DNA of 64,000 nt, from the NCBI GenBank assembly GCA_040388985.1, contig JAZKAU010000002.1, positions 420,114 to 484,113 of the forward strand. Direction: 5' to 3'. The first letter of the stretch is position 1; each line of letters opens with the position of its first letter. The position numbers and the translations under genes were made by a program. Source of the stretch: Patescibacteria group bacterium. Lineage in GTDB: Bacteria; Patescibacteriota; Minisyncoccia; Phycocordibacterales; Phycocordibacteraceae. This document shows, piece after piece, positions 678-62,610 of the stretch. A model generated the notes under the pieces. The model was given only the letters and a program-made list of their open reading frames with translations. It had not been told where the DNA came from and did no database searches.

Positions 678-1970
678 ATGAAAGAATACCCAAGAGCTAT
701 CGTGCATTTTGATGCGGATTCATTCTTCGCCTCCGTCGAGCAGACGATGGACTATCGGCTACGCGGGAAGGCGGTGGTGACGGGCGGCGAGCGCGGTGCC
801 GCTACCTCGGTCTCGAAAGAGGGGAAGAGACTCGGTCTCTATCGGGGCATGACGCTGCGCGAGATGAAGCGGGTCTGCCCGGACGTCGTGGTTGTGTCAT
901 CCGACTACACGAGCTACTCGCTCTACGCGCGAAGGATGTATGCCATAGCGCGGCAGTTCACTCCACTTGTCGAGGAATACAGCATCGACGAATGCTTCGC
1001 GGACATCACGGGCCTAGAAGAGAAATTCGGTATGTCCTACGAAGAGATCGCCCAGGCCATACAGAAGAAGCTGCATGCGGATCTCGGCATCACCTTCGGC
1101 GTGGGACTAGGACCGAGCAAGACGCTCGCCAAGATCGCAAGCAAGCTGGGTAAGCCGGCAGGCTTCGCGGCTATACCTGCCGATCGCATTCCTGAATTCA
1201 TCAAAGACGTACCCATCGGGAATATCTGGGGCATGGGCTTCCGTACGAGCCTGTACCTTGAGAAGCGCGGCGTGCATACGGCGCTCGACTTCGCGCGCAA
1301 GGACGACGGGTGGCTCAAAGAGCACAAGATGAGCAAGCCATACCGGGACATATGGCTCGAACTGAATGGTGCCTTCGTAAGGTCGCTTAATCTCGGCACA
1401 GACGACTCGATGGGTTCCATCCTTCAGTCGAGGACCTTTAAGCCGACGACAGATCGAGCCAGCATCCTCTCCTCACTCGCCAAGAATATCGAAGGCGCGT
1501 GTACGAAGGCCAGGAGGCACAAAGTGAAAGGAAGCTCTTGCCGCTTCTACCTTAAGACTCAGGAATTTACGTATGCGGGAAAGAATCTGAGTATGTCGGT
1601 GCCTCTCTCAGATCCACGAGAGTTCCTGCGGCTCGTAGAGGAGTATTTCGATGATGTATACGTTCCGGGAACGCTCTATCGCGCGAGTGGATTCGGACTC
1701 TATGGCATAACGCCCGACCGGGCGGGCATGAGGGATCTGTTCGGGGACAGCATCCGCGTAGAGCACGCATCTTCGCTCCTGTCAGTCGTGGACTCTATGA
1801 ACCGCAAGTACGGAAAGCAGACGCTTCACCTGGGAGCGAGTCTCGGCGCGATCGTGCGCGAGAACGCCTCGGACACCGAGCGCCGTAAACGTTCGCGAGC
1901 GCATATCAAGCTTGATATCGATAACCGCAAGAAGACGATAAATATTCCGTATCTGGGCGTCGCTCATTGA
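678..1970 (+). CDS. dinB: Y-family DNA polymerase (DinB/UmuC-like, catalytic residues intact)
   Basis: N-terminal 'HFDADSFFASVEQ' and 'SIDECFADIT' acidic catalytic motifs are present. 430 aa. Lies immediately downstream of lexA, the classic SOS pairing. Confidence 0.8.
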   Translation: MKEYPRAIVHFDADSFFASVEQTMDYRLRGKAVVTGGERGAATSVSKEGKRLGLYRGMTLREMKRVCPDVVVVSSDYTSYSLYARRMYAIARQFTPLVEEYSIDECFADITGLEEKFGMSYEEIAQAIQKKLHADLGITFGVGLGPSKTLAKIASKLGKPAGFAAIPADRIPEFIKDVPIGNIWGMGFRTSLYLEKRGVHTALDFARKDDGWLKEHKMSKPYRDIWLELNGAFVRSLNLGTDDSMGSILQSRTFKPTTDRASILSSLAKNIEGACTKARRHKVKGSSCRFYLKTQEFTYAGKNLSMSVPLSDPREFLRLVEEYFDDVYVPGTLYRASGFGLYGITPDRAGMRDLFGDSIRVEHASSLLSVVDSMNRKYGKQTLHLGASLGAIVRENASDTERRKRSRAHIKLDIDNRKKTINIPYLGVAH

Positions 1971-41530: not shown

Positions 41531-41615
41531 GGAGGCGTCGCATAGTGGTCTAGTGCGCACGCTTGGAAAGCGTGTGAACCGCAAGGTTCCGAGAGTTCGA
41601 ATCTCTCCGCCTCCG
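41531..41615 (+). tRNA. tRNA-Ser (GGA)
   Basis: Cloverleaf with 7-bp acceptor (ggaggcg/cgcctcc), anticodon loop ttGGAaa, long variable arm, T-loop ttcgaat. No encoded CCA. Confidence 0.85.
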
Positions 41616-41657
41616 CAGATGTCAAAGAAGGCGCGAGAGCGCCTGATTTGCTACAGC

Positions 41658-41788
41658 TGCGAGAGGCGGAGAGATTCGAAAGCCGGAGGCGCGAAGCCGA
41701 ATCAAGTCTTCGAGATTCGTTGCCGAGGCGTGGTCAAGCGCACTTAGCGAGTCTTCGAGCTTAGTGACGAGTGACCGAATCTCTCCGC
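41658..41788. repeat. Inverted plus direct partial copies of the tRNA-Ser 3' end downstream of the tRNA
   Basis: 'gagaggcggagagattcgaa' (the reverse complement of the tRNA 3' end) at 41658-41679, and 'gaatctctccgcc' (direct copy) at 41776-41788. Confidence 0.6.
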
Positions 41789-43795: not shown

Positions 43796-44160
43796 CGGAC
43801 CGGCACAGACGATCGCTCGGTCGCAAGATCGAGAGGAAAGTCCGAACACAGGCCAGGGCGCAAGTCCTGGCAGCAGGGTAGCGGGTAACGCCCGTCCGCA
43901 GCGATGCGCGAGGTGCGAGCAGAAACGTTCGATTCCGAAAGGATAGAAGCTCTCCAGCAGAGCGTTCTGGCGGCGACGCCAGAGTGAAACGGCTAAATCC
44001 TTACCTCTGTGCAAGGCCGTGCCGAGCCTATTCTTTAGAATAGGCTCGGAGCGCCGCTTGAATCTTCTAGTAATAGAAGATCTTAGATAGATGGTCGTCT
44101 CCGTCATCCGCCAGCTGGCGGATAGCGGAACAGAATTCGGCTTATCGTGCCGATCCGAAC
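43796..44160 (+). ncRNA. rnpB: RNase P RNA, bacterial type A
   Basis: 'GAGGAAAGTCCGaacACAGgCCAGGGcGCaAGtcCTGGcagcAGGGTAgCgGGTAACGCCcG' matches the conserved P4/P7-P10 core. The 3' 'ACAGAAttCGGCTTA' pairs with 5' 'AGTCCGAA' (P4). P1 pairs 43793-43804 with 44147-44158. A terminator follows. Confidence 0.85.
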
Positions 44161-51164: not shown

Positions 51165-51285
51165 CCTCTAAAAGACCTCATCTGCGTTGTTGCAGCTTCA
51201 AGAATTTCTTCCGCCGTACGCTTCAGTACGTTTCCAGAAATTCTTTCGCTGCGCCTAGCACCTGAAGCCTTTTTAAAGGCCGTTC
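51165..51285 (+). repeat. Intergenic repeat family 1, copy E
   Basis: ...catctgcgttgttgc...ccgccgtacgcttcagtacgtttcc...gctgcgcctagcacctgaagccttttta. Confidence 0.75.
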
Positions 51286-51337
51286 AGTTGGTCAAACGAA
51301 CGTTACGAGTTGCCGAGACTTGCTATACTGAAGGACA

Positions 51338-51697
51338 ATGGCACGGCACCCAGCACCACGGAATCGTATGAAGGAATTGGTAACGGCAGTGATACTGTCG
51401 TTCGCCATCGTCTGGCTGGTCTTCCTGGTCGTAAGCATCTTTCGGAAGGAGGAGATAGCGCGTAAGACGGTAGCCGGGACGAAGGTCGAGCTTGCGGCAC
51501 TCGATACGCGTAAGAACGACCTCTCGAAGACCGTAAGCGACATGGATACCGAGCGCGGTCAGGAGGCATCACTGCGCGAGACGTTCGGGGTTGCGCGGCC
51601 GGGCGAGGACGTTATCATCGTAGTGCCGAAGACCGAGACAGCGCCTCCGCCGCAGCTCACGCTTTGGCAGCGGATCAAAGGCTTCTTCGGGCTCTAG
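51338..51697 (+). CDS. Septum formation initiator family protein (FtsB/DivIC-like)
   Basis: TM followed by a coiled-coil ('ELAALDTRKNDLSKTVSDMDTERGQEASLRE'). Confidence 0.55.
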   Translation: MARHPAPRNRMKELVTAVILSFAIVWLVFLVVSIFRKEEIARKTVAGTKVELAALDTRKNDLSKTVSDMDTERGQEASLRETFGVARPGEDVIIVVPKTETAPPPQLTLWQRIKGFFGL

Positions 51698-51821
51698 AGT
51701 GCGTCTAGAATCTCCATCTGCTGCGTTACGGGTCCCTGCTCGTTTCTCCGCCGTACGCCCTAGTACGTCTACGAAACTCGCTGTCCCGCGCCTTGCATAT
51801 GAAAATTCTAGACGCACTCTT
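51695..51821 (+). repeat. Intergenic repeat family 1, copy F (flanked by a 16-bp perfect inverted repeat)
   Basis: tagagtgcgtctagaat-[ctccatctgctgcgtt...ccgccgtacgccctagtacgtc...cgcgccttgcatatg]-aaaattctagacgcactct. Confidence 0.85.
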
Positions 51822-51831
51822 AATTACCGTT

Positions 51832-51902
51832 GCGGGTATAGTTTAGTGGTAAAATGGGACCTTCCCAAGGTTCAGATCGGGGTTCGATTCCCCGTACCCG
51901 CA
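51832..51902 (+). tRNA. tRNA-Gly (CCC)
   Basis: Acceptor gcgggta/tacccgc. Anticodon loop ttCCCaa. T-arm ggggttcgattcccc. 71 nt, no encoded CCA. Confidence 0.85.
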
Positions 51903-51954
51903 CAAAATAAGGAAAAGGATATGTAAATATCCGATGACTATATTTTGTGACGTA

Positions 51955-52082
51955 GGTACGGGGAATCGAACGGCGGAGCCGGTATACAAGACGAGTCCTC
52001 GAGTGCTTGTCGGCGAGCCGCGGCCAGCGTTCTTAGGAGCGCAGCGAGTTAGAAAAAGCGGGCCGATTCCCCGTACCCGCAC
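51955..52082. repeat. Chimeric repeat: inverted tRNA-Gly 3'-end copy, a ~60-bp core that recurs at 62427-62487, and a direct tRNA-Gly 3'-end copy
   Basis: 'gtacggggaatcgaac' is the reverse complement of the tRNA-Gly 3' end. The core 'ggcggagccggtatacaagacgagtcctcgagtgcttgtcggcgagccg' is identical to the reverse complement of 62427-62474. 'gattccccgtacccgcaca' is repeated at 52065-52083. Confidence 0.8.
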
Positions 52083-52125
52083 AGGTAGGGCTGGGAAAGT
52101 AGATTACTATTCCAGCTATAAGCAA

Positions 52126-52782
52126 TTAATCCGAGAGATATCTCACTACGGAACTGCAATAGTCCTCGAACGAATCTCCGTTTGGAGAGAAGAATCCGTA
52201 TCCGTGTTCTTTAGCGATGCGCTCGACTCTCTTATTCTTTATGACCTCGTCCGCAAACCATTTTCGAACGGCAGAGTCGTCACCGCCGTCTTCCTCAACT
52301 ATCTTCTTGTAGACCCAGTCTTTCTTCGCATGCGCATATCCAAGGATCGTATTCAAATATGAATCATCCGTAAAGCCTACAAAGACAGCCTTTAATACTA
52401 GATGCTTGAGCGACAAGCTGTTTACGAGTTCGGGCGTTATGGCCATCCCTTCAATAGCTAAAGATGCAGTTCCCGCCTTTCGATCGTAATAATTGATTAA
52501 TCCTACGATTGTCTTCCAGGTCAGGTCCTCTTGCGTTATTTCCTGCCGAAAATGTTTCGTGTGAGATTCGTCCTTACTTTCTCCCGAACGATGGAACGAC
52601 ACATCGCCTTCGAAAGATAGGTGATTAACGTTTATGAAAGATTCGTCTGTGAGCGTGTATCTCGCAGCCTCTCGCAAAGCATCCGAGGAAATAGCGGTCA
52701 TGGGGTTTTGCCGTATCAGTTCATTGAAAATAATAGTCTTTCCTGAGCGAGGAGACCCGCCGATGAGGTATAGAGTAGTCAT
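52126..52782 (-). CDS. P-loop NTPase/kinase-like protein (Walker A 'GGSPRSGKT'), low-GC
   Basis: Walker A at residues 8-16, about 218 aa. AT-rich relative to the genome. Confidence 0.6.
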   Translation of the reverse strand: MTTLYLIGGSPRSGKTIIFNELIRQNPMTAISSDALREAARYTLTDESFINVNHLSFEGDVSFHRSGESKDESHTKHFRQEITQEDLTWKTIVGLINYYDRKAGTASLAIEGMAITPELVNSLSLKHLVLKAVFVGFTDDSYLNTILGYAHAKKDWVYKKIVEEDGGDDSAVRKWFADEVIKNKRVERIAKEHGYGFFSPNGDSFEDYCSSVVRYLSD

Positions 52783-52849
52783 GTCAATTTAGTATACGAC
52801 AGTATTTCCTGCCACTGAGGCGTCCTGATTCCAGGGTATACTTCTCATA

Positions 52850-53410
52850 ATGGAACATCGCGAAGTCGAGGTGCGCTTCCTTGAGATAGATAAAGAGCAG
52901 CTAATCGCAAAGCTGCGAGATCTGGGCGCCAAAGATTTGGGTGAGGATATGCTAGAAGAGGTGATTCTCTACGACAAGCCAATGACTTGGCAGGAGAAGG
53001 GTGGGAAAGTGCTCCGTCTGCGCACACGGCAAGGGAAGACGGTGTTGACCTATAAGCATCATGAGAAAGCATCAGTAGGAGGGACTGAGGAGATAGAATT
53101 CGAGGTCAGTGATCCTCACAAAGCCGAAGTTTTGTTAGACCGGCTCGGATATGAAGTATATAGACATCAACAGAAGAAACGACACACATTCGAGCTGGGA
53201 AGCGTAGTCGTCGATATTGATACCTGGCCCAAGATACCTACCTACGTGGAACTCGAAGGCGTCGATGAAGAGTCACTGAAAGCGACAGCTATGGCTCTCG
53301 ATCTTGACTGGAAAGACGTCGAATTGCGAAACCCACGGCTGGTGTTGGAAGAGAAGTACGGAATCCCGATCGCGACCATGCGCTGGTTTACGTTTGATGG
53401 GTTCGAGTAG
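52850..53410 (+). CDS. CYTH-domain protein (triphosphate tunnel metalloenzyme / CyaB-like)
   Basis: N-terminal 'EVEVRFLEI' (ExExK-type start) and conserved acidic and Lys/Arg tunnel residues through the length. Confidence 0.6.
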   Translation: MEHREVEVRFLEIDKEQLIAKLRDLGAKDLGEDMLEEVILYDKPMTWQEKGGKVLRLRTRQGKTVLTYKHHEKASVGGTEEIEFEVSDPHKAEVLLDRLGYEVYRHQQKKRHTFELGSVVVDIDTWPKIPTYVELEGVDEESLKATAMALDLDWKDVELRNPRLVLEEKYGIPIATMRWFTFDGFE

Positions 53411-53447
53411 GGTAGGACATTCGCCGTACCTGTTGATAACTGAAAAT

Positions 53448-53456
53448 GGTATACTG
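53448..53456 (+). promoter_or_regulatory. Extended -10 (TGGTATACT) upstream of the glutaredoxin gene
   Basis: 'aaaaTGGTATACTgag'. The same 'ggtatactgag' string occurs at the DUF192 promoter. Confidence 0.4.
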
Positions 53457-53480
53457 AGAACATAGTAAGAACCTATCTAT

Positions 53481-53723
53481 ATGGATACGAACATCACCAT
53501 CTACAGCACCCCTACCTGCCACTTCTGCCACATGGCTAAGGATTTCCTGACCGAACACAAGGTCCCGTTCACTGACTACGACGTGCAGTCGAACCTCGAG
53601 AAGCGCCAGGAGATGATCGAGAAGAGTGGCCAGATGGGCGTACCTGTCATCTTCGTGGGCGACGAGATGATCATCGGCTTCGATAAGGAGAAGCTCTCCA
53701 CTCTTGCGGGCATAACGGCATAA
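53481..53723 (+). CDS. NrdH/glutaredoxin-like small redoxin (CHFC)
   Basis: 'ITIYSTPTCHFCHMAKDFL...GVPVIFVGDEMIIGF' thioredoxin-fold CxxC. Confidence 0.8.
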   Translation: MDTNITIYSTPTCHFCHMAKDFLTEHKVPFTDYDVQSNLEKRQEMIEKSGQMGVPVIFVGDEMIIGFDKEKLSTLAGITA

Positions 53724-53736
53724 GGGCACGCAACAT

Positions 53737-53765
53737 GAAACCGCCCTCCATCGGAGGGCGGTTTC
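53737..53765 (+). terminator. Rho-independent terminator
   Basis: gaaaccgccctcc-atcg-gagggcggtttc. Confidence 0.7.
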
Positions 53766-53900
53766 ATGTTAGTCTCCAAATGCAGGTACACGTGTAGTGC
53801 CTCGCTTGCCCTTGTAAGCAGTTCTCCATGAGTCGACTGCTTGCTCGGACTTCGCTCGGCGTGATAGTAACATGAATACTTGTTCCTCTCAGCCTCGCTC

Positions 53901-53972
53901 GCCCTTGTAGTTCAATGGATAGAACGGAAGTTTCCTAAATTTCTGATCCAGGTCCGATTCCTGGCAAGGGCA
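53901..53972 (+). tRNA. tRNA-Arg (CCT)
   Basis: Acceptor gcccttg/caagggc. Anticodon loop ttCCTaa. T-arm ccaggtccgattcctgg. A partial copy of the 5' end ('cctcgcttgcccttgta') lies 90 bp upstream. Confidence 0.8.
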
Positions 53973-54029
53973 CAATCCTGAAGTTCCAATATGGCTGTAA
54001 GCATAGCTATAACGAGGTATAATGTAGAT

Positions 54030-55172: not shown

Positions 55173-55245
55173 GCTTGGATAGCTCAGTTGGTAGAGCGCG
55201 CCCCTGAAGAGGGTGAGGTCGCCGGTTCGACCCCGGCTCCAAGCA
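55173..55245 (+). tRNA. tRNA-Phe (GAA)
   Basis: Acceptor gcttgga/tccaagc. D-arm gctcagttggtagagc. Anticodon loop ctGAAga. T-arm gccggttcgaccccggc. Confidence 0.9.
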
Positions 55246-55320
55246 CAAAACAGAGTCTTGGGATTGAGAAGAGGCTGCGGGGCAGCCTCTGTCCGGGCGT
55301 AGATTTCGTTACCAGTTCTT

Positions 55321-56466: not shown

Positions 56467-56497
56467 CTCCCTCCACTTGAGTGGCACGCAGAGAGGT

Positions 56498-56612
56498 TTC
56501 TGAAAAACTCGATATGCAAGGCGCTGAGGAGTGAAAGGCAGAGTCGTACTTAGGCGTACGGTGAGGTCTTGAGCGACGAGAGCAACGCAGCAGATCGGGG
56601 AATTTCAGGAAG
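56498..56612 (-). repeat. Intergenic repeat family 1, copy C
   Basis: Reverse complement: gcttcctgaaattccccgatctgctgcgttgc...caccgtacgcctaagtacgactc...gcgccttgcatatcgagtttttcag. Confidence 0.85.
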
Positions 56613-56617
56613 CTCCG

Positions 56618-57115
56618 TTAGCCGGCCTTTACGCGCAGCTTAGTCTGCTTAGCCTTATCAAGCTTCGGAAGGACGAGGGTCAGGAGACCGTCCTTGGCGG
56701 TCGCGCTCGAGGCGTCGACATCGACTTCCTGCGGAAGCAGGATGGTGCGCGAGAAGGAGCCCCAGAAGAGTTCGCGTATGAAATACTCTGAGTCCGAGAC
56801 GCTGTCGCGCTCGGCGCGTGCGCCGTCTATGACGACCATGTCGCGGCTTATGGAGAGGTTAATCTCATCCGGCCGTACGCCTGCGATGAACGTACGGATG
56901 ACTATTTCGCCGGCAGTCTGATAGACGTCAACCGGAAGTTGCCCCTCGCTCGGCTCTTCTTCTGCCTCAGCGAATGCTGCGTGCGTTTGCGTGCTGCTTA
57001 CCTGCACCTGGGGAGATACGCGGCGGGCAGGTGTGACGTCGTCCTCGAAGGCGTCGTAGTCGTCAGTGACCGGGACGGAGCCGGAGAGTCGTTCGAAGAA
57101 AGAGCGCTTTTTCAT
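56618..57115 (-). CDS. Hsp20/alpha-crystallin small heat-shock protein
   Basis: 'PVDVYQTAGEIVIRTFIAGVRPDEINLSI' and 'AKDGLLTLVLPK' are the ACD motifs. Confidence 0.85.
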   Translation of the reverse strand: MKKRSFFERLSGSVPVTDDYDAFEDDVTPARRVSPQVQVSSTQTHAAFAEAEEEPSEGQLPVDVYQTAGEIVIRTFIAGVRPDEINLSISRDMVVIDGARAERDSVSDSEYFIRELFWGSFSRTILLPQEVDVDASSATAKDGLLTLVLPKLDKAKQTKLRVKAG

Positions 57116-57885: not shown

Positions 57886-60003
57886 CTACGGTGCTTTAGC
57901 GGTCTGTCCGGGCCACGGAGCTATCATGAGTAGCCCTTCGGTCTCCGGAAGACTCTGCCAGATCTCTTCGGTGACAAACGGCATGAACGGATGCAGGACG
58001 GCAAGCACGTCGCGCAACAGGGAACGCAAGAGCGCCTTGCGTGATGCTATCGCTGCGCTATCGTTCCCGGTGAATATCGGTTTTGATTCCTCGAGGAGCT
58101 CGTCGGCGAGGCGGTGCCAGGCGTAGTGATATATCTTCTCGGCGGCGAGGTAGATGCGATAGGCTTCCATATCGGAGGTAATGTCAGTGATAAGCGCATC
58201 AAGCTCAGTACGAAGCTCCTGGTCAGAAGGCGTAAGTTCAGCCATCTGATCAGCGCCGCTCGTATTCTCAAGTACGAAACGCGTGATGTTCCAGACCTTA
58301 TTCGCGAAGTTCTTGTATCCCTTTATCTTATCCTCGCGAAGCGCAAGATCGGTACCGGGCGTATTGCCAACGATGAGTCCTATACGTAGTGCATCAGTAC
58401 CGAATTTCTCCGTAAGCTCAAGGGGGTTGATGACGTTGCCTTTAGACTTAGACATCTTCTTATTATTCGCATCATTCACGAGGCCGTGCAGATAAACCGT
58501 GTGGAAAGGCGCCTTACCGCTCAGGTACAGGCCGAAACAGATCATGCGCGCAACCCAGAAGAAGATAATGTCGCGACCGGTCTCCATGACATCGGTCGGG
58601 TAGTGGGTAGCAAAGTCTTTTCCGTCGGGGTACCCGGTCGTCACGAGCGGCCATTGGCCGGAGGAGAACCACGTGTCGAACGTATCGGCGTCCTGGACCC
58701 ATCCTTCGCCCGGAGATTCAAGGCTCGCTATAGCATCGCCGTCCTTGAACCAGGCCGGTATCGGAATGCCCCAGATGATCTGTCGAGAGATATTCCAGTC
58801 GAGCGTATTCTCCATCCAGTGTCGGAATATCTTCTCCTCATGATCGGGAATGAAGCGCACGTTGCCTGCGTTCACCGCTTCGATAGCTTTCTTGGCAAGC
58901 GGCGCCATCTTCACGAACCACTGATCTTTCACTTGCGGCTCTATCATGGTCGAGCACTTATAGCAGCGCTTCACGACGTTCTGATATTTTTCATCGGTCG
59001 ATACGAGAAGTCCCTTGTTCGCGAGTTTCTCAAGTATCTTCCCGCGCGCTTCAGTTATCTTCATGCCTTCGAATTCGCCGGCAATGGGGAGAAGCTTCCC
59101 GCGCCAGTCGATGATCTGCTCCATATCAAGCCCGTGACGCTTGGCGATCTCGAAGTCCACCTGACTGTGCCAAGGCGTGATAGTCATGACACCCGTCCCG
59201 AATTCCATCTCTACGGCAGAGTCCTTGATGACGGTCGCGGTTATCGGACCATTTATCCACTCCAGCTCGAATGTGTCGCCATGCGCGTACTTCGCGTAAC
59301 GCTCATCTTCCGGATGCATGACCACGTATTTGTCGCCGAATTTTGTTTCCGGACGCACGGTACCTATCTCAAAAGGACCGTATTTCATCGTATAGAAAGG
59401 AGTGTTCTCTTCTACGCTCTCAGTCTCGATATCGGACAGGGAGGTCTGATGCTTCGGGCACCAGTTCACGGTACGCTTGCCGCGATAGACTAGGCCGTCA
59501 GCAAACATCTTTATGAATGTCTGCTGCACACGCTCGACCACATCCGGGTCAAGGGTGAATTTCTCGCGCGACCAATCGCAGGAGGCGCCGAGCGCTTTGA
59601 CCTGGCTTTCCATATTCGACTTGTTAGCGAGCGTGAAGGCGAGTATCTCCGCATAGAGCTCTTTCGGGTCCATGCCGAAGCGCGAACGTCCTTCCTTCTC
59701 AAGCTGCTTCTCATACACCACCTGGGTCTCGAAGCCTGCGTGGTCGGCGCCCGGTATCCAGAGCGCCCGGTATCCGCGCATGCGCTTGTAGCGTGTCATG
59801 AGGTCCTGAAGCGCCACGAAGAGCGCGTGGCCGGCGTGCAGGTTGCCGTTGGCGTTGGGCGGCGGCATCACGATGGTGAACGGCTCGCGAGACTCGGCAT
59901 CCGGCAGATTGTCGGGGTTAAAATACCCGCTTTCTTCCCACGCCGTATATATGCGCTGCTCGGTGTCGGCGGGATTGTAGGGTTTTAAAAATTTCTCATC
60001 CAT
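57886..60003 (-). CDS. valS: Valine--tRNA ligase (short form lacking C-terminal coiled-coil)
   Basis: 'PPPNANGNLHAGHAL' HIGH and 'KMSKSKGN' KMSKS motifs. Start taken at 'MDEKFLKPYNP' (60003) because the upstream in-frame extension runs into a repeat element. Confidence 0.9.
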   Translation of the reverse strand: MDEKFLKPYNPADTEQRIYTAWEESGYFNPDNLPDAESREPFTIVMPPPNANGNLHAGHALFVALQDLMTRYKRMRGYRALWIPGADHAGFETQVVYEKQLEKEGRSRFGMDPKELYAEILAFTLANKSNMESQVKALGASCDWSREKFTLDPDVVERVQQTFIKMFADGLVYRGKRTVNWCPKHQTSLSDIETESVEENTPFYTMKYGPFEIGTVRPETKFGDKYVVMHPEDERYAKYAHGDTFELEWINGPITATVIKDSAVEMEFGTGVMTITPWHSQVDFEIAKRHGLDMEQIIDWRGKLLPIAGEFEGMKITEARGKILEKLANKGLLVSTDEKYQNVVKRCYKCSTMIEPQVKDQWFVKMAPLAKKAIEAVNAGNVRFIPDHEEKIFRHWMENTLDWNISRQIIWGIPIPAWFKDGDAIASLESPGEGWVQDADTFDTWFSSGQWPLVTTGYPDGKDFATHYPTDVMETGRDIIFFWVARMICFGLYLSGKAPFHTVYLHGLVNDANNKKMSKSKGNVINPLELTEKFGTDALRIGLIVGNTPGTDLALREDKIKGYKNFANKVWNITRFVLENTSGADQMAELTPSDQELRTELDALITDITSDMEAYRIYLAAEKIYHYAWHRLADELLEESKPIFTGNDSAAIASRKALLRSLLRDVLAVLHPFMPFVTEEIWQSLPETEGLLMIAPWPGQTAKAP

Positions 60004-60020
60004 AGTGAAGCGTCCTAAAA

Positions 60021-60120
60021 CGTCCATCTGCTTTGTTATGGGTCCCGCTTCGCATCTGCGTCGTACGCCCAAGTACGCCTACAAAGCTTAGCTTCCCATG
60101 CCTCGCATCTGGAGCCTTTT
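60021..60120 (+). repeat. Intergenic repeat family 1, copy G
   Basis: cgtccatctgctttgttatgggtcccgcttcgcatctgcgtcgtacgcccaagtacgcc...cctcgcatctggagcctttta. Confidence 0.8.
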
Positions 60121-60183
60121 AGACTCGCTTCATCAAATATAGCAAATATAAGCTTAATTTTCCGCCCCGACCTGTTAGTTAGA

Positions 60184-60297
60184 GCTTCCTGAAATTTCCC
60201 GATCTGCCGCGTTGTCGCTATCGCTCAAGTCCTCATCGTACGCTCAAGTACGACTCGGCCTTTCGCTCTGCTACGCCTTGCATATCGGGTTTTTCAG
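60184..60297 (+). repeat. Intergenic repeat family 1, copy B (overlaps the tsaD stop codon)
   Basis: cttcctgaaatttcccgatctgccgcgttg...tcgtacgctcaagtacgactc...acgccttgcatatcgggtttttcag. Confidence 0.85.
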
Positions 60298-61487
60298 AAA
60301 CCTCTATTCATGAGTCTCAGATTCCCGTCCGCACGCAATTCTTGAGGGTCCGCAAACTCTTTTCGAAGGGCATGAAAATAGCCCGCAAGACCTATCATCA
60401 CGGCATTATCGGTCGCAAGATTAAAAGGAGGTATACGGAGCGCCACGTCAGGATGTTCGTCCTTAATCTTCTCTTCGAATACGCGCCGTATATGGAGATT
60501 CGCAGAGACCCCGCCGCTTACCACGAGTGTTTTCGCCCCGGTCTCTCTCAGGGCAGCATCTGTCTTTGACCAGAGTACGTCAGCAGCTGCGTCTTCGAAT
60601 TCAAGAGCCATGTATTCTTTATCGGTCTGGCTGATGTCCGGATTCTTCTTAAGAAGATAGAGTACGGCAGTCTTGAGACCCGAGAAGGAAAAGTCATTCG
60701 TTCCGGACTTGATCATCGGACGCGGAAGCGTATACGGATTCTCTCCGCCTCTCCCACGTGCCACCTCTGCCAGCCGCGATATCTCAGGACCTCCGGGATA
60801 GGGGAGTCCGAGCATCCGGGCTACCTTATCGAAGGCTTCGCCAACGGAGTCGTCGAGCGTGCCGCCGATAGTCGCATACGAGAGCCAGTCGCTCATGAGT
60901 ACGAGATCCGTGTGGCCGCCTGCGATGCCGAGCGCGAGCAGAGGAAGTCTAGGCTCTTCGACAAACAGGTCTCCGTCCTCGTCTTTCGCGATCGCGGAGA
61001 CGATATGTCCTTCAAGGTGATTCACCGCTATGAGCGGCTTGTTCCAGGCGAGTGCGAGCGCCTTCGCGAAATTCACGCCTACCCAGAGCGCAGGTTCAAG
61101 ACCGGGGCCTGCCGTGACGGCGATAGTATCGATATCCGGCGTTTCCATCTCGAGGACTGACGCGAAGAAAAGTTCCGTAAGGCCGGGCTCGCGCTCAAGC
61201 ACGGTCGCGATAGCCTCATGTACTACTTCTGGCATGCTCTGCGTATCTTCGCGTAGCATCTGTGCTTCCGCGAGCGCGGCTTCAAGGAGCGGCACCAGAT
61301 TCTTCGCGTGTTCGCGCTTGGCCATCATCGGGTAGACGCCGCCGTACTGGGCGTGCAGCTCTATCTGCGAGAGCAGCGCATTTCCGAGCACGGCGAAGCG
61401 CGCAGCATTTCCTTCACCCGTTGATTCGCATTCCAGTAGTGCGACCGCGGTCTCATCACACGAAGTCTCTATCGCAAGGAGTTTCAT
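60294..61487 (-). CDS. tsaD: tRNA N6-adenosine threonylcarbamoyltransferase TsaD (Kae1/Gcp)
   Basis: 'LAIETSCDETAVAL', 'GGV..N' motifs, ~60-aa insertion. The stop codon lies inside the terminal 'tttttcag' of repeat copy B. Confidence 0.85.
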   Translation of the reverse strand: MKLLAIETSCDETAVALLECESTGEGNAARFAVLGNALLSQIELHAQYGGVYPMMAKREHAKNLVPLLEAALAEAQMLREDTQSMPEVVHEAIATVLEREPGLTELFFASVLEMETPDIDTIAVTAGPGLEPALWVGVNFAKALALAWNKPLIAVNHLEGHIVSAIAKDEDGDLFVEEPRLPLLALGIAGGHTDLVLMSDWLSYATIGGTLDDSVGEAFDKVARMLGLPYPGGPEISRLAEVARGRGGENPYTLPRPMIKSGTNDFSFSGLKTAVLYLLKKNPDISQTDKEYMALEFEDAAADVLWSKTDAALRETGAKTLVVSGGVSANLHIRRVFEEKIKDEHPDVALRIPPFNLATDNAVMIGLAGYFHALRKEFADPQELRADGNLRLMNRGF

Positions 61488-62330: not shown

Positions 62331-62412
62331 AGGTTTACTGTATCGGTTTCAAAGTATAGTGGAAAGAGGACGGGATTCAGCCGCAGTCACTAACTCGCTA
62401 CGCTCCTAAGTG

Positions 62413-62495
62413 CTGCCGGCCCCGGCTCGCCGACAAGCACTCGAGGACTCGTCTTGTATACCGGCTCCGCCGTTCGAATCCCTCACCGCTGGTAA
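62413..62495. repeat. Second copy of the chimeric tRNA-end repeat (reverse orientation), fused to a tRNA-Val 3'-end fragment
   Basis: The reverse complement of 62427-62474 is identical to 51976-52023. 'gttcgaatccctcaccgc' (62475-62492) is an inverted copy of the tRNA-Val 3' end at 62541-62558. Confidence 0.8.
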
Positions 62496-62537
62496 AACAA
62501 TACTCGAAAACGGTTCCCGTTTTCTCGTTTGTTTTTG

Positions 62538-62610
62538 TGCGCGGTGAGGGATTCGAACCCCCGACATCGTCAACGTCAATGACGCGCTCTACCAACTGAG
62601 CTAACCGCGC
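62538..62610 (-). tRNA. tRNA-Val (GAC)
   Basis: Minus-strand gcgcggttagctcagttggtagagcgcgtcaTTGACGTtgacgatgtcgggggttcgaatccctcaccgcgca. Anticodon GAC. A terminator hairpin lies downstream at 62500-62535. Confidence 0.85.

Follow-up and report, generated by a model that had tools for sequence, protein, structure and literature searches.

What is the repeat that follows the tRNA-Gly(CCC) gene in this patescibacterial genome, in which an inverted and a direct copy of the tRNA 3' end enclose a hairpin-forming core? An earlier note on this DNA had likened the arrangement to att-site scars of tRNA-targeting integrative elements, or to a tRNA-targeting MITE whose ends mimic the target. We analyzed the whole 64-kb stretch of DNA that contains the locus (referred to as the window), in which ARAGORN and Rfam identified five tRNA genes. 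Three of these five genes, tRNA-Gly(CCC), tRNA-Val(GAC) and tRNA-Ser(GGA), share a module that lies downstream on the tRNA strand. The module begins with an A-rich trailer containing a small hairpin, continues with an antisense copy (17-20 nt) of the tRNA T-loop, T-stem and acceptor 3' strand and with a core of two hairpins, P2 and P3, and closes with a direct copy of the tRNA 3' end from T-loop position C56 onward. At the Gly locus, the features are as follows.

51832-51902/3, plus strand: tRNA-Gly(CCC), identified by ARAGORN and Rfam
51904-51950, plus strand: trailer with an A-rich run, a small hairpin (51917-51932) and a T-rich run, from sequence and fold
51951-51970, plus strand: antisense segment complementary to the T-loop, the T-stem 3' strand and the acceptor 3' strand (17/20)
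51971-52020, plus strand: core hairpin P2, which has a GGA/GA internal loop as well as tandem G.A pairs and includes a 48-nt block at 51972-52019
52021-52064, plus strand: core hairpin P3, a variant of the consensus GGTC..CTTAG...CTTAG..GTGACC
52064-52083, plus strand: direct repeat of the tRNA 3' end that starts at T-loop C56 and includes the discriminator plus CA (20/20)

The inverted and direct copies that had been reported around the Gly core are real, with 17 of 20 positions matching at 51951-51970 and 20 of 20 at 52064-52083. The direct copy, CGATTCCCCGTACCCGCACA, was compared with 51885-51904; scored at 52062-52081 against the 20-mer of the tRNA 3' end, it gave 18/20. The tRNA-Gly discriminator is A51902, followed by CA and the A-rich trailer, and CCA is not encoded. 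In the predicted fold, the trailer and the antisense segment contribute to a long hairpin (HP1) in which the tRNA 3' end itself serves as the 5' arm, and the direct copy is able to pair with the same antisense segment (P1). The corresponding features of the Val and Ser loci are listed below.

62537/8-62610, minus strand: tRNA-Val(GAC), identified by ARAGORN and Rfam
62493-62536, minus strand: Val trailer with a hairpin at 62506-62524
62473-62492, minus strand: Val antisense segment (17/20), with an 18-nt exact run against the tRNA-Val 3' end
62380-62472, minus strand: Val core P2 and P3, including the 48-nt identical block at 62424-62471
about 62366-62379, minus strand: degenerate Val direct copy tgaatcccgtcctc (tgaatccc), T-loop/T-stem part only
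41531-41615/6, plus strand: tRNA-Ser(GGA), identified by ARAGORN and Rfam
41617-41660, plus strand: Ser trailer with a hairpin at 41630-41643, from sequence
41661-41680, plus strand: Ser antisense segment (18/20), with an exact 18-mer at 41663-41680
41681-41775, plus strand: Ser core P2 and P3, a diverged sub-family with a GCGAAGCC-type P2, closest to locus L056
41776-41789, plus strand: direct copy of the tRNA-Ser 3' end, 14 nt from T-loop C56

The 48-nt core block at the Gly locus (51972-52019, plus strand) recurs with 100% identity and in reverse orientation at the Val locus (62424-62471, minus strand), as had been noticed before, although the position first given for it (62427-62474) was 3 nt off. 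None of 100 shuffles produced any match. The likeness between the two cores reaches 68 nt at 96%, and P3 and the spacers differ between the copies. The reported 18-nt inverted copy of the tRNA-Val 3' end was recovered as an exact run inside the antisense segment. We infer that the identical block is a gene-conversion tract between paralogous copies, and it is no proof of a very recent jump. The Ser locus has the same layout with an inverted and a direct copy, as described earlier, but what had been taken for a different spacer is a diverged homologue of the core: covariance model R1 scored 87.7 bits at Ser, 88.3 bits at Val and 75.8 bits at Gly, and the next best match in the window scored 10.5 bits.

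The core is conserved as a fold. Across its 27 pairs, 94.3% of pair cells were standard, and 12 pairs carried double changes, amounting to 129 cells; none of 500 shuffles equaled this, and slid controls reached 25-40%. Compensatory changes were found in three helices. G.U pairs outnumbered A.C pairs by 41:15 and one pair was nearly invariant as G.U, which favors folding of the tRNA-sense strand. The antisense copy is followed by a short junction (GAAAGA or GAACGG), P2 has a conserved GGA/GA internal loop, and P3 has an invariant CTTAG...CTTAG with a U.U mismatch as well as a conserved G.U pair; loops and internal loops keep their sequence from one candidate phylum to another. When the full-length Gly and Ser units were folded, HP1 formed and the downstream copy completed the tRNA body. 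The antisense segment has two mutually exclusive pairings, with the tRNA 3' half (HP1) or with the downstream copy (P1). The Val hairpin at 62506-62524 passed a terminator scan on both strands and the Gly and Ser trailers failed it; hairpins and T-rich runs were seen in the trailers of family members. An intrinsic terminator would account for the trailer only, and not for P2/P3 or the tRNA copies.

A degenerate pattern based on P2 was run on one-genome-per-species references, and its matches were checked by covariance model. The pattern detected 62 loci, 57 of which were in Patescibacteria or in metagenome-assembled genomes (MAGs) of unnamed bacteria; the remaining five, from other taxa or from MAGs labeled only "bacterium", had no tRNA and failed the covariance model. 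In most loci the pattern started 63-76 nt past a co-oriented tRNA or tmRNA gene, and in arrays 140-260 nt past it. With an independent pattern based on P3 only, at least 120 metagenome loci were found, and 85 of the 112 assessable matches lay behind a tRNA or tmRNA gene, representing 36 anticodons and tmRNA. The core is tRNA- or tmRNA-linked essentially everywhere it was found with these two patterns. The Gly repeat is confirmed as one copy of a widespread, Patescibacteria-specific family of structured elements behind tRNA and tmRNA genes, a family that has apparently not been described before.

The core of the element measures about 115-150 nt, and the unit about 180 nt with its tRNA-derived arm and trailer. 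Core identity across candidate phyla is 70-87% over approximately 100 nt, and near-identical P2 sequences occur at different tRNAs in different candidate phyla; copies at different tRNAs of the same genome are sometimes nearest neighbors. An exact 28-mer of the window core had no match among the metagenome contigs. Tandem arrays of unlike sub-types were found at three loci (L043, L036 and L046) and a truncated copy at another (L047), and two orphans (L010 and L004) have near-consensus cores with no intact tRNA upstream.

To what extent is the element present in close relatives? The four closest relatives (L063-L066), in which the neighboring DHH protein is 72-74% identical, share the gene order tRNA-Val-DHH-TsaD...tRNA-Phe...tRNA-Arg...tRNA-Gly...LepA. 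No element was detected in 77 kb of these relatives (best match 12.7 bits), and their tRNA-Val and tRNA-Gly genes are intact. In L063 and L064, tRNA-Val ends in ..GCGCACCA and the DHH start codon lies 1 nt later; the window has 206 extra nt at this position. Orthologous Arg/Gly/Pro/Gly tRNA clusters are likewise not all occupied in the same way. The presence of the element is polymorphic in related genomes, whose empty sites lie at intact tRNAs; at 72-74% protein identity, the boundaries of these sites can be placed only approximately. The earlier note would have seen an ancient, fixed feature in a core unlinked to tRNAs elsewhere and in relatives with identical flanks; because the core is tRNA-linked and the relatives are polymorphic, neither holds.

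The remaining two tRNA genes of the window lie beyond the Gly element.

53901-53973, plus strand: tRNA-Arg(CCT), identified by ARAGORN and Rfam
55173-55246, plus strand: tRNA-Phe, identified by ARAGORN and Rfam

A partial copy of the tRNA-Arg 5' end, CCTCGCTtGCCCTTGTA, exists upstream of the gene as reported and is longer than claimed (53800-53816 against 53893-53909, 16/17), but it is a different kind of repeat and unrelated to the element family. The low-GC islet of approximately 2 kb that was said to lie between the Gly and Arg loci is indeed low in GC (0.49 at 52001-54000 versus about 0.56 elsewhere in the window) and consists of variable DNA, its gene content varying among relatives independently of the element. 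However, it is not delimited by tRNA-Gly end copies: a further copy was searched for at its far side and was absent. GC skew across the window gave no usable signal of replication direction.

We further analyzed how the arms relate to the adjacent tRNA, scoring only 13 tRNA-specific nucleotides in 52 elements. The antisense arm matched the element's own tRNA better than it matched 95% of other tRNAs in 40/52 elements, and the direct arm did so in 34/52; in 49/52, this was true of at least one of the two arms. The arms are therefore specific for the neighboring tRNA. The direct repeat spans C56 to N73 plus C(A), that is, to the exact gene end, with full-length copies in 50 family members, and the duplicated target is 8-21 nt long, with no fixed short length. 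The inverted pair formed by the antisense segment and the direct copy (P1) is target-derived and variable, and many members, among them those of type C, have a short P1 or none. The antisense arm is better kept than the direct copy across the family, and it runs past the discriminator into the trailer, giving an uninterrupted palindrome centered on the trailer hairpin. Some tRNAs that have no P2/P3 core also show long hairpins reaching over the acceptor 3' strand, so that a general mechanism, for example terminator-stem extension or quasi-palindrome correction, may have produced part of the antisense arm.

CCA is mostly not encoded in tRNA genes that carry the element, and N73-CA ends were found in 42/53 of them versus 30/64 of the genes without it. 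When the ends of the two copies were compared, CCA occurred 7 times in copy 1 and 10 times in copy 2, giving no direction; the idea of an ancestral CCA retained by the displaced copy, against CA in the gene copy, was dropped for lack of asymmetry (10 versus 7). Two other readings were rejected. A retroviral-type primer-binding site does not agree with a complementarity that leaves out the CCA end and continues into the trailer, and a spliced T-loop intron does not suit a family in which most members are without a complete downstream 3' half.

Database searches covered the possible identity of the core and the enzymes that might act on it. Rfam 15 gave no match to the core at E<=1 in the window or at E<=5 in eight near-consensus loci, and the unmatched families include ribozymes, omega/HEARO, retron, group I/II intron and Y RNA; permissive matches were only hairpin-type microRNA noise on HP1 (Gly 51884-51970). 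There is no ORF within the element unit. Pfam searches found no integrase or cargo between the repeats, and the neighbors of the three window copies are housekeeping genes. Among 133 ORFs within 2 kb of elements, no recombinase recurred (Phage_integrase was outside the 25 commonest Pfam families, and rve occurred twice), and no reverse transcriptase, TnpB/IscB or IS110-type gene was linked to elements among these ORFs or the window neighbors. A 233-aa ORF between two identical copies (L024) was considered as a recombinase and rejected; it carries an HExxH motif. The two family patterns had no matches in IMG/VR, blastn of a consensus-like element found none in phage and plasmid records, and no autonomous parent transposon was detected near elements or in the phage, plasmid and viral collections searched.

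Taken together, we favor, at a probability of roughly 0.55, a non-coding, non-autonomous insertion element of Patescibacteria that occupies tRNA and tmRNA 3' ends and targets the segment from the T-loop to the 3' end. The unit would be inserted by recombination within this segment, bringing a replacement tRNA 3' end and a terminator-like hairpin, and the original 3' end would be displaced and then decay, following the logic of tRNA-targeting integrative elements. The single-strand fold of P2/P3 may be recognized by a trans-acting enzyme, as folded ssDNA or as RNA, and the excised form, consisting of HP1, P2 and P3, would have a Y shape. Of the two readings first proposed, a tRNA-targeting MITE with target-mimicking ends comes close to the evidence of a tRNA-linked core, tRNA-specific arms and empty sites. 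Att-site scars of larger islands do not agree with a core that is a conserved, covarying fold across candidate phyla, with no cargo or integrase between the repeats. One family with arms matched to dozens of tRNAs is not the behavior of classical integrases, and any retargeting mechanism is only hypothetical. A bolder version holds that the element is a minimal protein-less integrative module, a Y-shaped strand of approximately 180 nt in which HP1 replicates a tRNA/tmRNA 3' end plus terminator and P2/P3 recruit a host or helper recombinase or polymerase, so that target choice could be rewritten for any tRNA; we consider this rather unlikely.

The proposed insertion element was compared with several known systems. 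tRNA/tmRNA-targeting integrative elements and their recombinase-less derivatives (cis-mobilizable elements) are exemplified by the Dehalococcoides ssrA genomic islands (PMC3146451). Like these, the present element shows apparent insertion at the T-loop, a direct repeat of approximately 20 nt that begins in the T-loop and stops exactly where the gene does, restoration of the gene by the element side, downstream tandem accretion and sporadic occurrence among relatives (PMC3146451). In contrast to them, the unit is only approximately 180 nt with no cargo and no integrase nearby, it uses one core with matched arms for dozens of tRNAs, it carries an antisense copy of the target, and its core is conserved as a base-paired single-strand fold and not as protein-binding arm sites. 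MITE and REP/BIME repeats are likewise small, non-coding, multi-copy, hairpin-forming and non-autonomous, with variable presence between genomes and concerted evolution within a genome. However, the present element is restricted to tRNA/tmRNA 3' ends in one orientation, its "terminal inverted repeat" (P1) is target-derived and changes with the target, and no parent transposon or RAYT-type gene was found. With integron attC sites and the forked hairpin of CTX-phi attP(+) used by XerCD, it shares a partial conservation of structure over sequence, a single folding strand, conserved mismatches or bulges and tandem arrays, and HP1 would rebuild the duplex of the chromosomal target; unlike in those systems, the P2/P3 sequence is also strongly conserved, and a link to an integron integrase, Xer/dif or ssDNA is hypothetical here. 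Group I introns of Patescibacteria tRNA genes lie in the anticodon loop at position 35/36 and match group I models (PMC13011429). They belong to the same phylum and are also structured, tRNA-associated and patchy (PMC13011429), but the element follows an uninterrupted tRNA and matches no intron model. Given that these introns lie at 35/36 (PMC13011429) and that the tRNAs here are intact, identity with a group I intron was ruled out.

A host RNA function would likewise be consistent with the strong conservation of sequence, the sense-strand fold and the fixed position. The element could be a cis-encoded RNA of the tRNA transcription unit, a co-transcribed, structured 3' trailer of the 3'-ETS type whose copies spread by duplication, in which an HP1/P1 switch controls termination, 3'-end processing or quality control of CCA-less precursors, or frees a stable sRNA. 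Several observations point this way: the covarying fold of the tRNA-sense strand with its conserved G.U pair, the strictly fixed position and orientation behind the tRNA, the loops and internal loops conserved across candidate phyla, the mutually exclusive antisense pairings with HP1 present in the full-length Gly and Ser folds, the better preservation of the antisense arm than of the direct copy, and the mostly CCA-less tRNAs that carry the element (N73-CA in 42/53 versus 30/64). Known tRNA trailer RNAs (3' external transcribed spacers) and tRNA-operon terminators also lie on the same strand directly behind the tRNA and have a terminator-like hairpin with A and T runs; however, the known examples are short, lineage-specific and not tRNA-complementary, without a duplicate of the tRNA 3' end or a common 100-nt core behind many unrelated tRNAs. 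Moreover, the element is dispensable, being absent at the same tRNAs of close relatives and present at a subset of tRNAs per genome, and near-consensus cores persist in orphans that have no tRNA. A terminator-like hairpin and T-run precede the core, whose transcription is hypothetical. The "switch" is not a conserved feature, as many members, type C among them, have only a short P1 or none. We regard a host trailer RNA, the main rival, as possible but doubtful.

A retro- or RNA-guided mobile element would explain a scaffold joined to a variable segment complementary to the adjacent target, and the sense-strand fold agrees with it. The core RNA might be copied into DNA, acquiring tRNA ends by template switching or by self-priming at the tRNA-trailer hairpin, and the palindrome that crosses the discriminator into the trailer does resemble a snap-back copy. 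Neurospora mitochondrial retroplasmids integrate at tRNA genes via hybrid plasmid-tRNA cDNAs, a precedent for such a route. Alternatively, the core might serve as a scaffold, with the antisense arm of 18-20 nt as the guide by which an enzyme encoded in trans is brought to the tRNA gene. Yet the window neighbors and the ORFs within 2 kb of elements included no linked gene for a reverse transcriptase, TnpB/IscB or an IS110-type enzyme, Rfam shows no match to omega-RNA, retron or bridge-type families, the complementarity enters the gene's trailer and not the mature CCA end, and the "guide" has decayed in many copies, which makes both versions decidedly unlikely. Finally, the repeats could be passive leftovers with no function or mobility of their own, either att-site scars of islands or prophages or fold-back and triplication errors between T-arm and terminator inverted repeats. 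Template switching between inverted repeats is known to produce direct-inverted-direct triplications, and hairpins that reach the acceptor strand without a core do exist. Direct repeats of tRNA 3' ends are also what integrases leave (PMC3146451). Such leftovers would not be expected to share a 100-nt core that is 70-87% identical between candidate phyla and shows compensatory changes in three helices, nor to carry the same core at 57 reference and at least 120 metagenome loci with no island between the repeats; this explanation is already disfavored and, in our judgment, scarcely credible.

tRNA and tmRNA genes are classic landing sites of mobile DNA, and the known agents are large and carry their own integrases. 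Here, the signature of integrative elements (T-loop insertion, a restored gene and a displaced 3' end) is found in a protein-less unit of approximately 180 nt. If mobile, the element would be among the smallest known site-specific insertion modules, with target choice encoded in nucleic acid, and its host phylum is one considered poor in mobile elements. As a host RNA, it would represent a widespread, undescribed tRNA-trailer RNA of Patescibacteria tied to CCA-less tRNA genes. Under both readings, the element is a common structured genome feature that neither Rfam nor tRNA finders name, and it accounts for recurrent "partial tRNA" fragments and intergenic repeats in Patescibacteria MAGs. Should the protein-less module prove true, these ultra-small bacteria would possess a naturally programmable, tRNA-end-directed form of insertion.

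Behind three of the five tRNA genes in the window, and co-oriented with them, lies one and the same arrangement of about 180 nt. In all three copies, the discriminator is followed by CA with an A-rich run, then by a small hairpin and a T-rich run. Next come an antisense segment, complementary to the T-loop and to the 3' strands of T-stem and acceptor, the core hairpins P2 and P3, and finally a repeat of the tRNA 3' end in direct orientation (the direct copy), which begins at T-loop C56:

51832-51903, + strand: tRNA-Gly(CCC) with element; trailer hairpin 51917-51932, antisense segment 51951-51970, direct copy 52064-83 (20/20)
41531-41616, + strand: tRNA-Ser(GGA) with element; trailer hairpin 41630-41643, antisense segment 41661-41680, direct copy 41776-89 (14 nt)
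62537-62610, - strand: tRNA-Val(GAC) with element; trailer hairpin 62506-62524, antisense segment 62473-62492, direct copy degenerate

A 48-nt P2 block at 51972-52019 recurs identically at 62424-62471, and shuffled sequences gave zero matches. With a covariance model of type A, the architecture seen in the window, the copies reached 88, 88 and 76 bits, and the rest of the 64 kb stayed at 10.5 bits or less. An earlier note had described this repeat correctly, save for a 3-nt offset of the block at tRNA-Val, but its view that the Ser copy has a different spacer did not hold, the model identifying that spacer as a diverged homologue of the same core. Because the Gly and Val copies have identical P2 while their P3 and spacers differ, we would read the P2 identity as a gene-conversion tract between older paralogues.

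To describe the fold, we aligned 55 family members over three helices: P2, P3 and the closing stem P1, in which the antisense segment pairs with the direct copy. The helices were 94.3% paired, with double changes at 12 pairs (129 cells); all 500 shuffles fell short of these figures, and slid partners gave 25-40% pairing. The invariance of P2 is partly a product of the search pattern; the 3' half of P3 (CTTAGTAACTCGTGACC), which lies outside that pattern, is equally conserved. The conserved features of the core outside Watson-Crick pairing are as follows: P2 has a GGA/GA internal loop of tandem G.A pairs, the two CTTAG boxes oppose each other with a U.U mismatch, one A is bulged, and one G.U pair is nearly invariant. 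Since G.U outnumbers A.C by 41:15 among variable pairs, the folding strand is probably the tRNA-sense strand, as RNA or single-stranded DNA. The antisense segment has two mutually exclusive partners, the downstream copy (P1) or the tRNA itself, with which the antisense segment, anti-trailer and trailer form one long, often perfect hairpin (HP1). The predicted minimum-energy folds of the full-length Gly and Ser units use HP1; there the downstream copy completes the tRNA body, and HP1-P2-P3 becomes an insertion in the T-loop. As P1 is the least conserved helix (84% paired), selection is not preserving the distal pairing.

The distribution of the family was examined with a degenerate pattern built from positions common to the Gly/Val and Ser copies, which yielded 62 loci in 185,579 species-representative genomes. 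Patescibacteria MAGs or MAGs labelled only "bacterium" accounted for 57 of these; the other five, in a Sinorhizobium plasmid, a Mycolicibacterium isolate and three MAGs (labelled Actinomycetes, Thermomicrobiales and only "bacterium"), had no nearby tRNA and failed the covariance model. Record titles of the true loci name Kaiser-, Yonath-, Lloyd-, Campbell-, Taylor- and Wolfebacteria, Paceibacterota, Minisyncoccia and "Saccharibacteria". In these loci the pattern starts 63-76 nt 3' of a co-oriented tRNA or tmRNA, or 140-260 nt where units are stacked. A second, independent pattern covering P3 only matched at least 120 loci in metagenome contigs. Among the 127 matches listed, 15 lay at contig edges, 85 had a co-oriented upstream tRNA or tmRNA (36 anticodons plus tmRNA), and most of the remaining 27 stood visibly behind tRNA-like 3' ends. 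By both searches, the core is linked to a tRNA or tmRNA nearly everywhere it recurs, in line with the earlier note's suggestion of a tRNA-targeting element. The core had zero family matches in Rfam 15 even at E<=5, and was absent from IMG/VR and from phage and plasmid collections.

We then asked how closely each arm follows its own tRNA, scoring only the 13 tRNA-specific nucleotides (the discriminator plus the 3' strands of T-stem and acceptor). The own tRNA beat 95% of other tRNAs for the antisense arm in 40 of 52 members, for the direct arm in 34 of 52 and for either arm in 49 of 52. The direct copy always starts at C56, and when complete it ends at N73 plus C(A), the exact gene end. The qualities of the two arms tend to be inverse: many members combine a perfect antisense arm with a short direct copy, the reverse case of a degenerate antisense arm beside a perfect direct copy is less frequent, and in some, including the window Gly copy, both are good. 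Three architectures were found in the P3-anchored sample. Type A has the layout seen in the window. In type B, which the type A model detects poorly, an extra hairpin with a conserved AACTGCTT loop lies exactly between the anti-acceptor and anti-T-stem parts, and the split antisense arm is followed on its 3' side by more hairpins and by the direct tRNA-end copy. In type C, the antisense arm covers the acceptor end and trailer only, and the downstream copy is a few nucleotides. A long hairpin with the acceptor 3' strand in it also follows some tRNAs that lack the P2/P3 core, so a segment antisense to the acceptor can exist by itself. Positions in the reference loci are:

L015 245-520; L060 5368-5640; L052 5400-5703 (- strand); L044 2346-2620; L043 3664-3840: type B elements behind tRNAs
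L006 6136-6190; L052 ~700-793 (- strand): core-less perfect hairpins of at least 20 bp, the 5' arm including the last 8 nt of the tRNA

At L050 5229-5330, several partial fragments resembling tRNA 3' ends (ggttcgagtcc...) come one after another behind tRNA-Ile(TAT), all in direct orientation.

All five window tRNA genes end in N73-CA followed by A-rich sequence and do not encode CCA, while the same tRNAs in the four closest relatives compared mostly encode CCA or CC. Across the family, C directly follows N73 in 50 of 50 gene copies; N73-CA is also the commonest ending at tRNAs without an element. The window further contains a bacterial class A RNase P RNA (43797-44160, + strand) that scores only 119.8 bits, with the cut-off at 100, and in which several helices of the model are absent or short; it is a reduced version, which would not be surprising in an ultra-small genome.

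The presence/absence variation raised in the earlier note was found in those four relatives, whose neighbouring DHH protein is 72-74% identical. They keep the gene order (tRNA-Val, DHH, TsaD, aminoacyl-tRNA synthetase, PrsW, HSP20, DUF2914, tRNA-Phe, tRNA-Arg, tRNA-Gly, DivIC, LepA), and an unfiltered search found zero elements in their 77 kb. In two of them, a single base separates the tRNA-Val end, GCGCACCA, from the DHH start codon, and at this place the window has 206 extra bases; the relatives' tRNA-Gly is followed by unrelated sequence. Elsewhere, the occupied tRNA differs among orthologous Arg/Gly/Pro/Gly clusters, tandem arrays of unlike sub-types occur, and one copy is truncated. Copies at different tRNAs of one genome are sometimes mutual nearest relatives, and almost identical P2 sequences occur in different candidate phyla. 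Three loci show copies in other states:

L010 2040-2173; L004 2945-3078: orphan elements scoring 137 and 127 bits, best or near-best, with near-consensus cores, an upstream tRNA remnant but no intact gene, and a downstream direct copy still resembling a tRNA 3' end
L024 5153-5451; 6449-6747: 299-nt direct repeats, 99-100% identical, each with an element behind a tmRNA-like 3' end, flanking a 233-aa ORF with an HExxH motif, perhaps a gene that was captured between two elements or duplicated there

The three window copies have housekeeping genes as neighbours (M48 peptidase, glycosyltransferase, LepA, CYTH protein, TsaD, DHH phosphoesterase). Of the 133 ORFs lying no more than 2 kb from an element at loci L001-L062, recurrent families were AAA ATPases, HD (6), UPF0102 (YraN-type predicted nuclease; 6), SmpB, CCA-adding enzyme (3) and NERD. 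The recurrence of UPF0102, HD and CCA-adding enzyme may be simple synteny with particular tRNAs. Phage-type integrases were absent from the top 25 families, and rve occurred twice. The element is non-autonomous.

Other repeats and variable DNA lie close by:

53800-53816 and 53893-53909: direct repeat at tRNA-Arg(CCT), 17 nt, CCTCGCTyGCCCTTGTA, 16/17, copies 93 nt apart
51190-51300; 51690-51830; 56470-56620 (- strand); 60000-60130; 60175-60325: second repeat family, ~110-140 nt, unrelated to the element

The islet between tRNA-Gly and tRNA-Arg (52.1-53.8 kb) has a lower GC content (0.49) and contains (52100-53800) the genes of a CYTH-domain protein and of a 218-aa protein that matches nothing in Pfam, besides a 113-aa ORF; a perfect 18-bp hairpin lies within it at 53732-53770. 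Given its lower GC and the different genes of relatives at this position (glutaredoxin, ABM, OmdA and others), the islet, which the earlier note had described as low in GC, is variable DNA. Copies of the tRNA-Gly end do not delimit it, and no link to the element was detectable. Likewise, the partial 5' copy reported at tRNA-Arg is real, but it involves the 5' gene boundary (8 nt of leader and the first 9 nt of the gene) and falls outside the element family; it looks like a small duplication or insertion footprint. The second repeat family, with five copies in 10 kb, one ending 11 nt before tRNA-Gly, folds into a long hairpin whose tip, CGTACGCnnnAGTACG, is invariant and which also has a conserved GCGCCTTGCATAT box; it shows some compensatory changes and has no Rfam match.

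We favor, with a probability of roughly 0.55, a non-autonomous insertion element whose folded core would be recognised in trans, because its traits match those of DNA integrating in the T-loop of tRNA or tmRNA genes but its scale, fold, antisense copy and many tRNAs differ. The likeness lies in the direct repeat from T-loop to exact gene end, the intact tRNA with a terminator-like hairpin right after the restored end, tandem stacking and sporadic occurrence. The Dehalococcoides ssrA islands have a 20-bp repeat, mid T-loop insertion, tandem islands and cis-mobilizable derivatives (PMC3146451). In contrast to such islands, the element is about 180 nt long and carries no gene, its core is a conserved covarying fold accompanied by an antisense copy of the target, and one core serves dozens of different tRNAs. 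The main rival, a co-transcribed trailer RNA with a host function, gains support from which strand folds and from the fixed geometry, but is rather unlikely, given that the element is dispensable, orphan copies exist and a terminator-like hairpin intervenes. RNA-guided or retro-type mobility seems improbable, and passive scars more improbable still.

For the insertion element, the mechanism beyond recombination in the T-loop-to-3'-end segment is one that we infer. A three-step history of its arms is plausible: insertion would create a perfect direct repeat, the antisense arm would become, or stay, complementary to the other arm of the palindrome, the constrained one in the tRNA, and the displaced copy would decay except for the 8-10 nt pairing in P1. 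In full-text searches the element was undescribed, and it appears so in the libraries and literature searched; its kind, a tRNA-end insertion element and structured repeat, is known, but its design is not. The feature itself is real, statistically secure and widespread.
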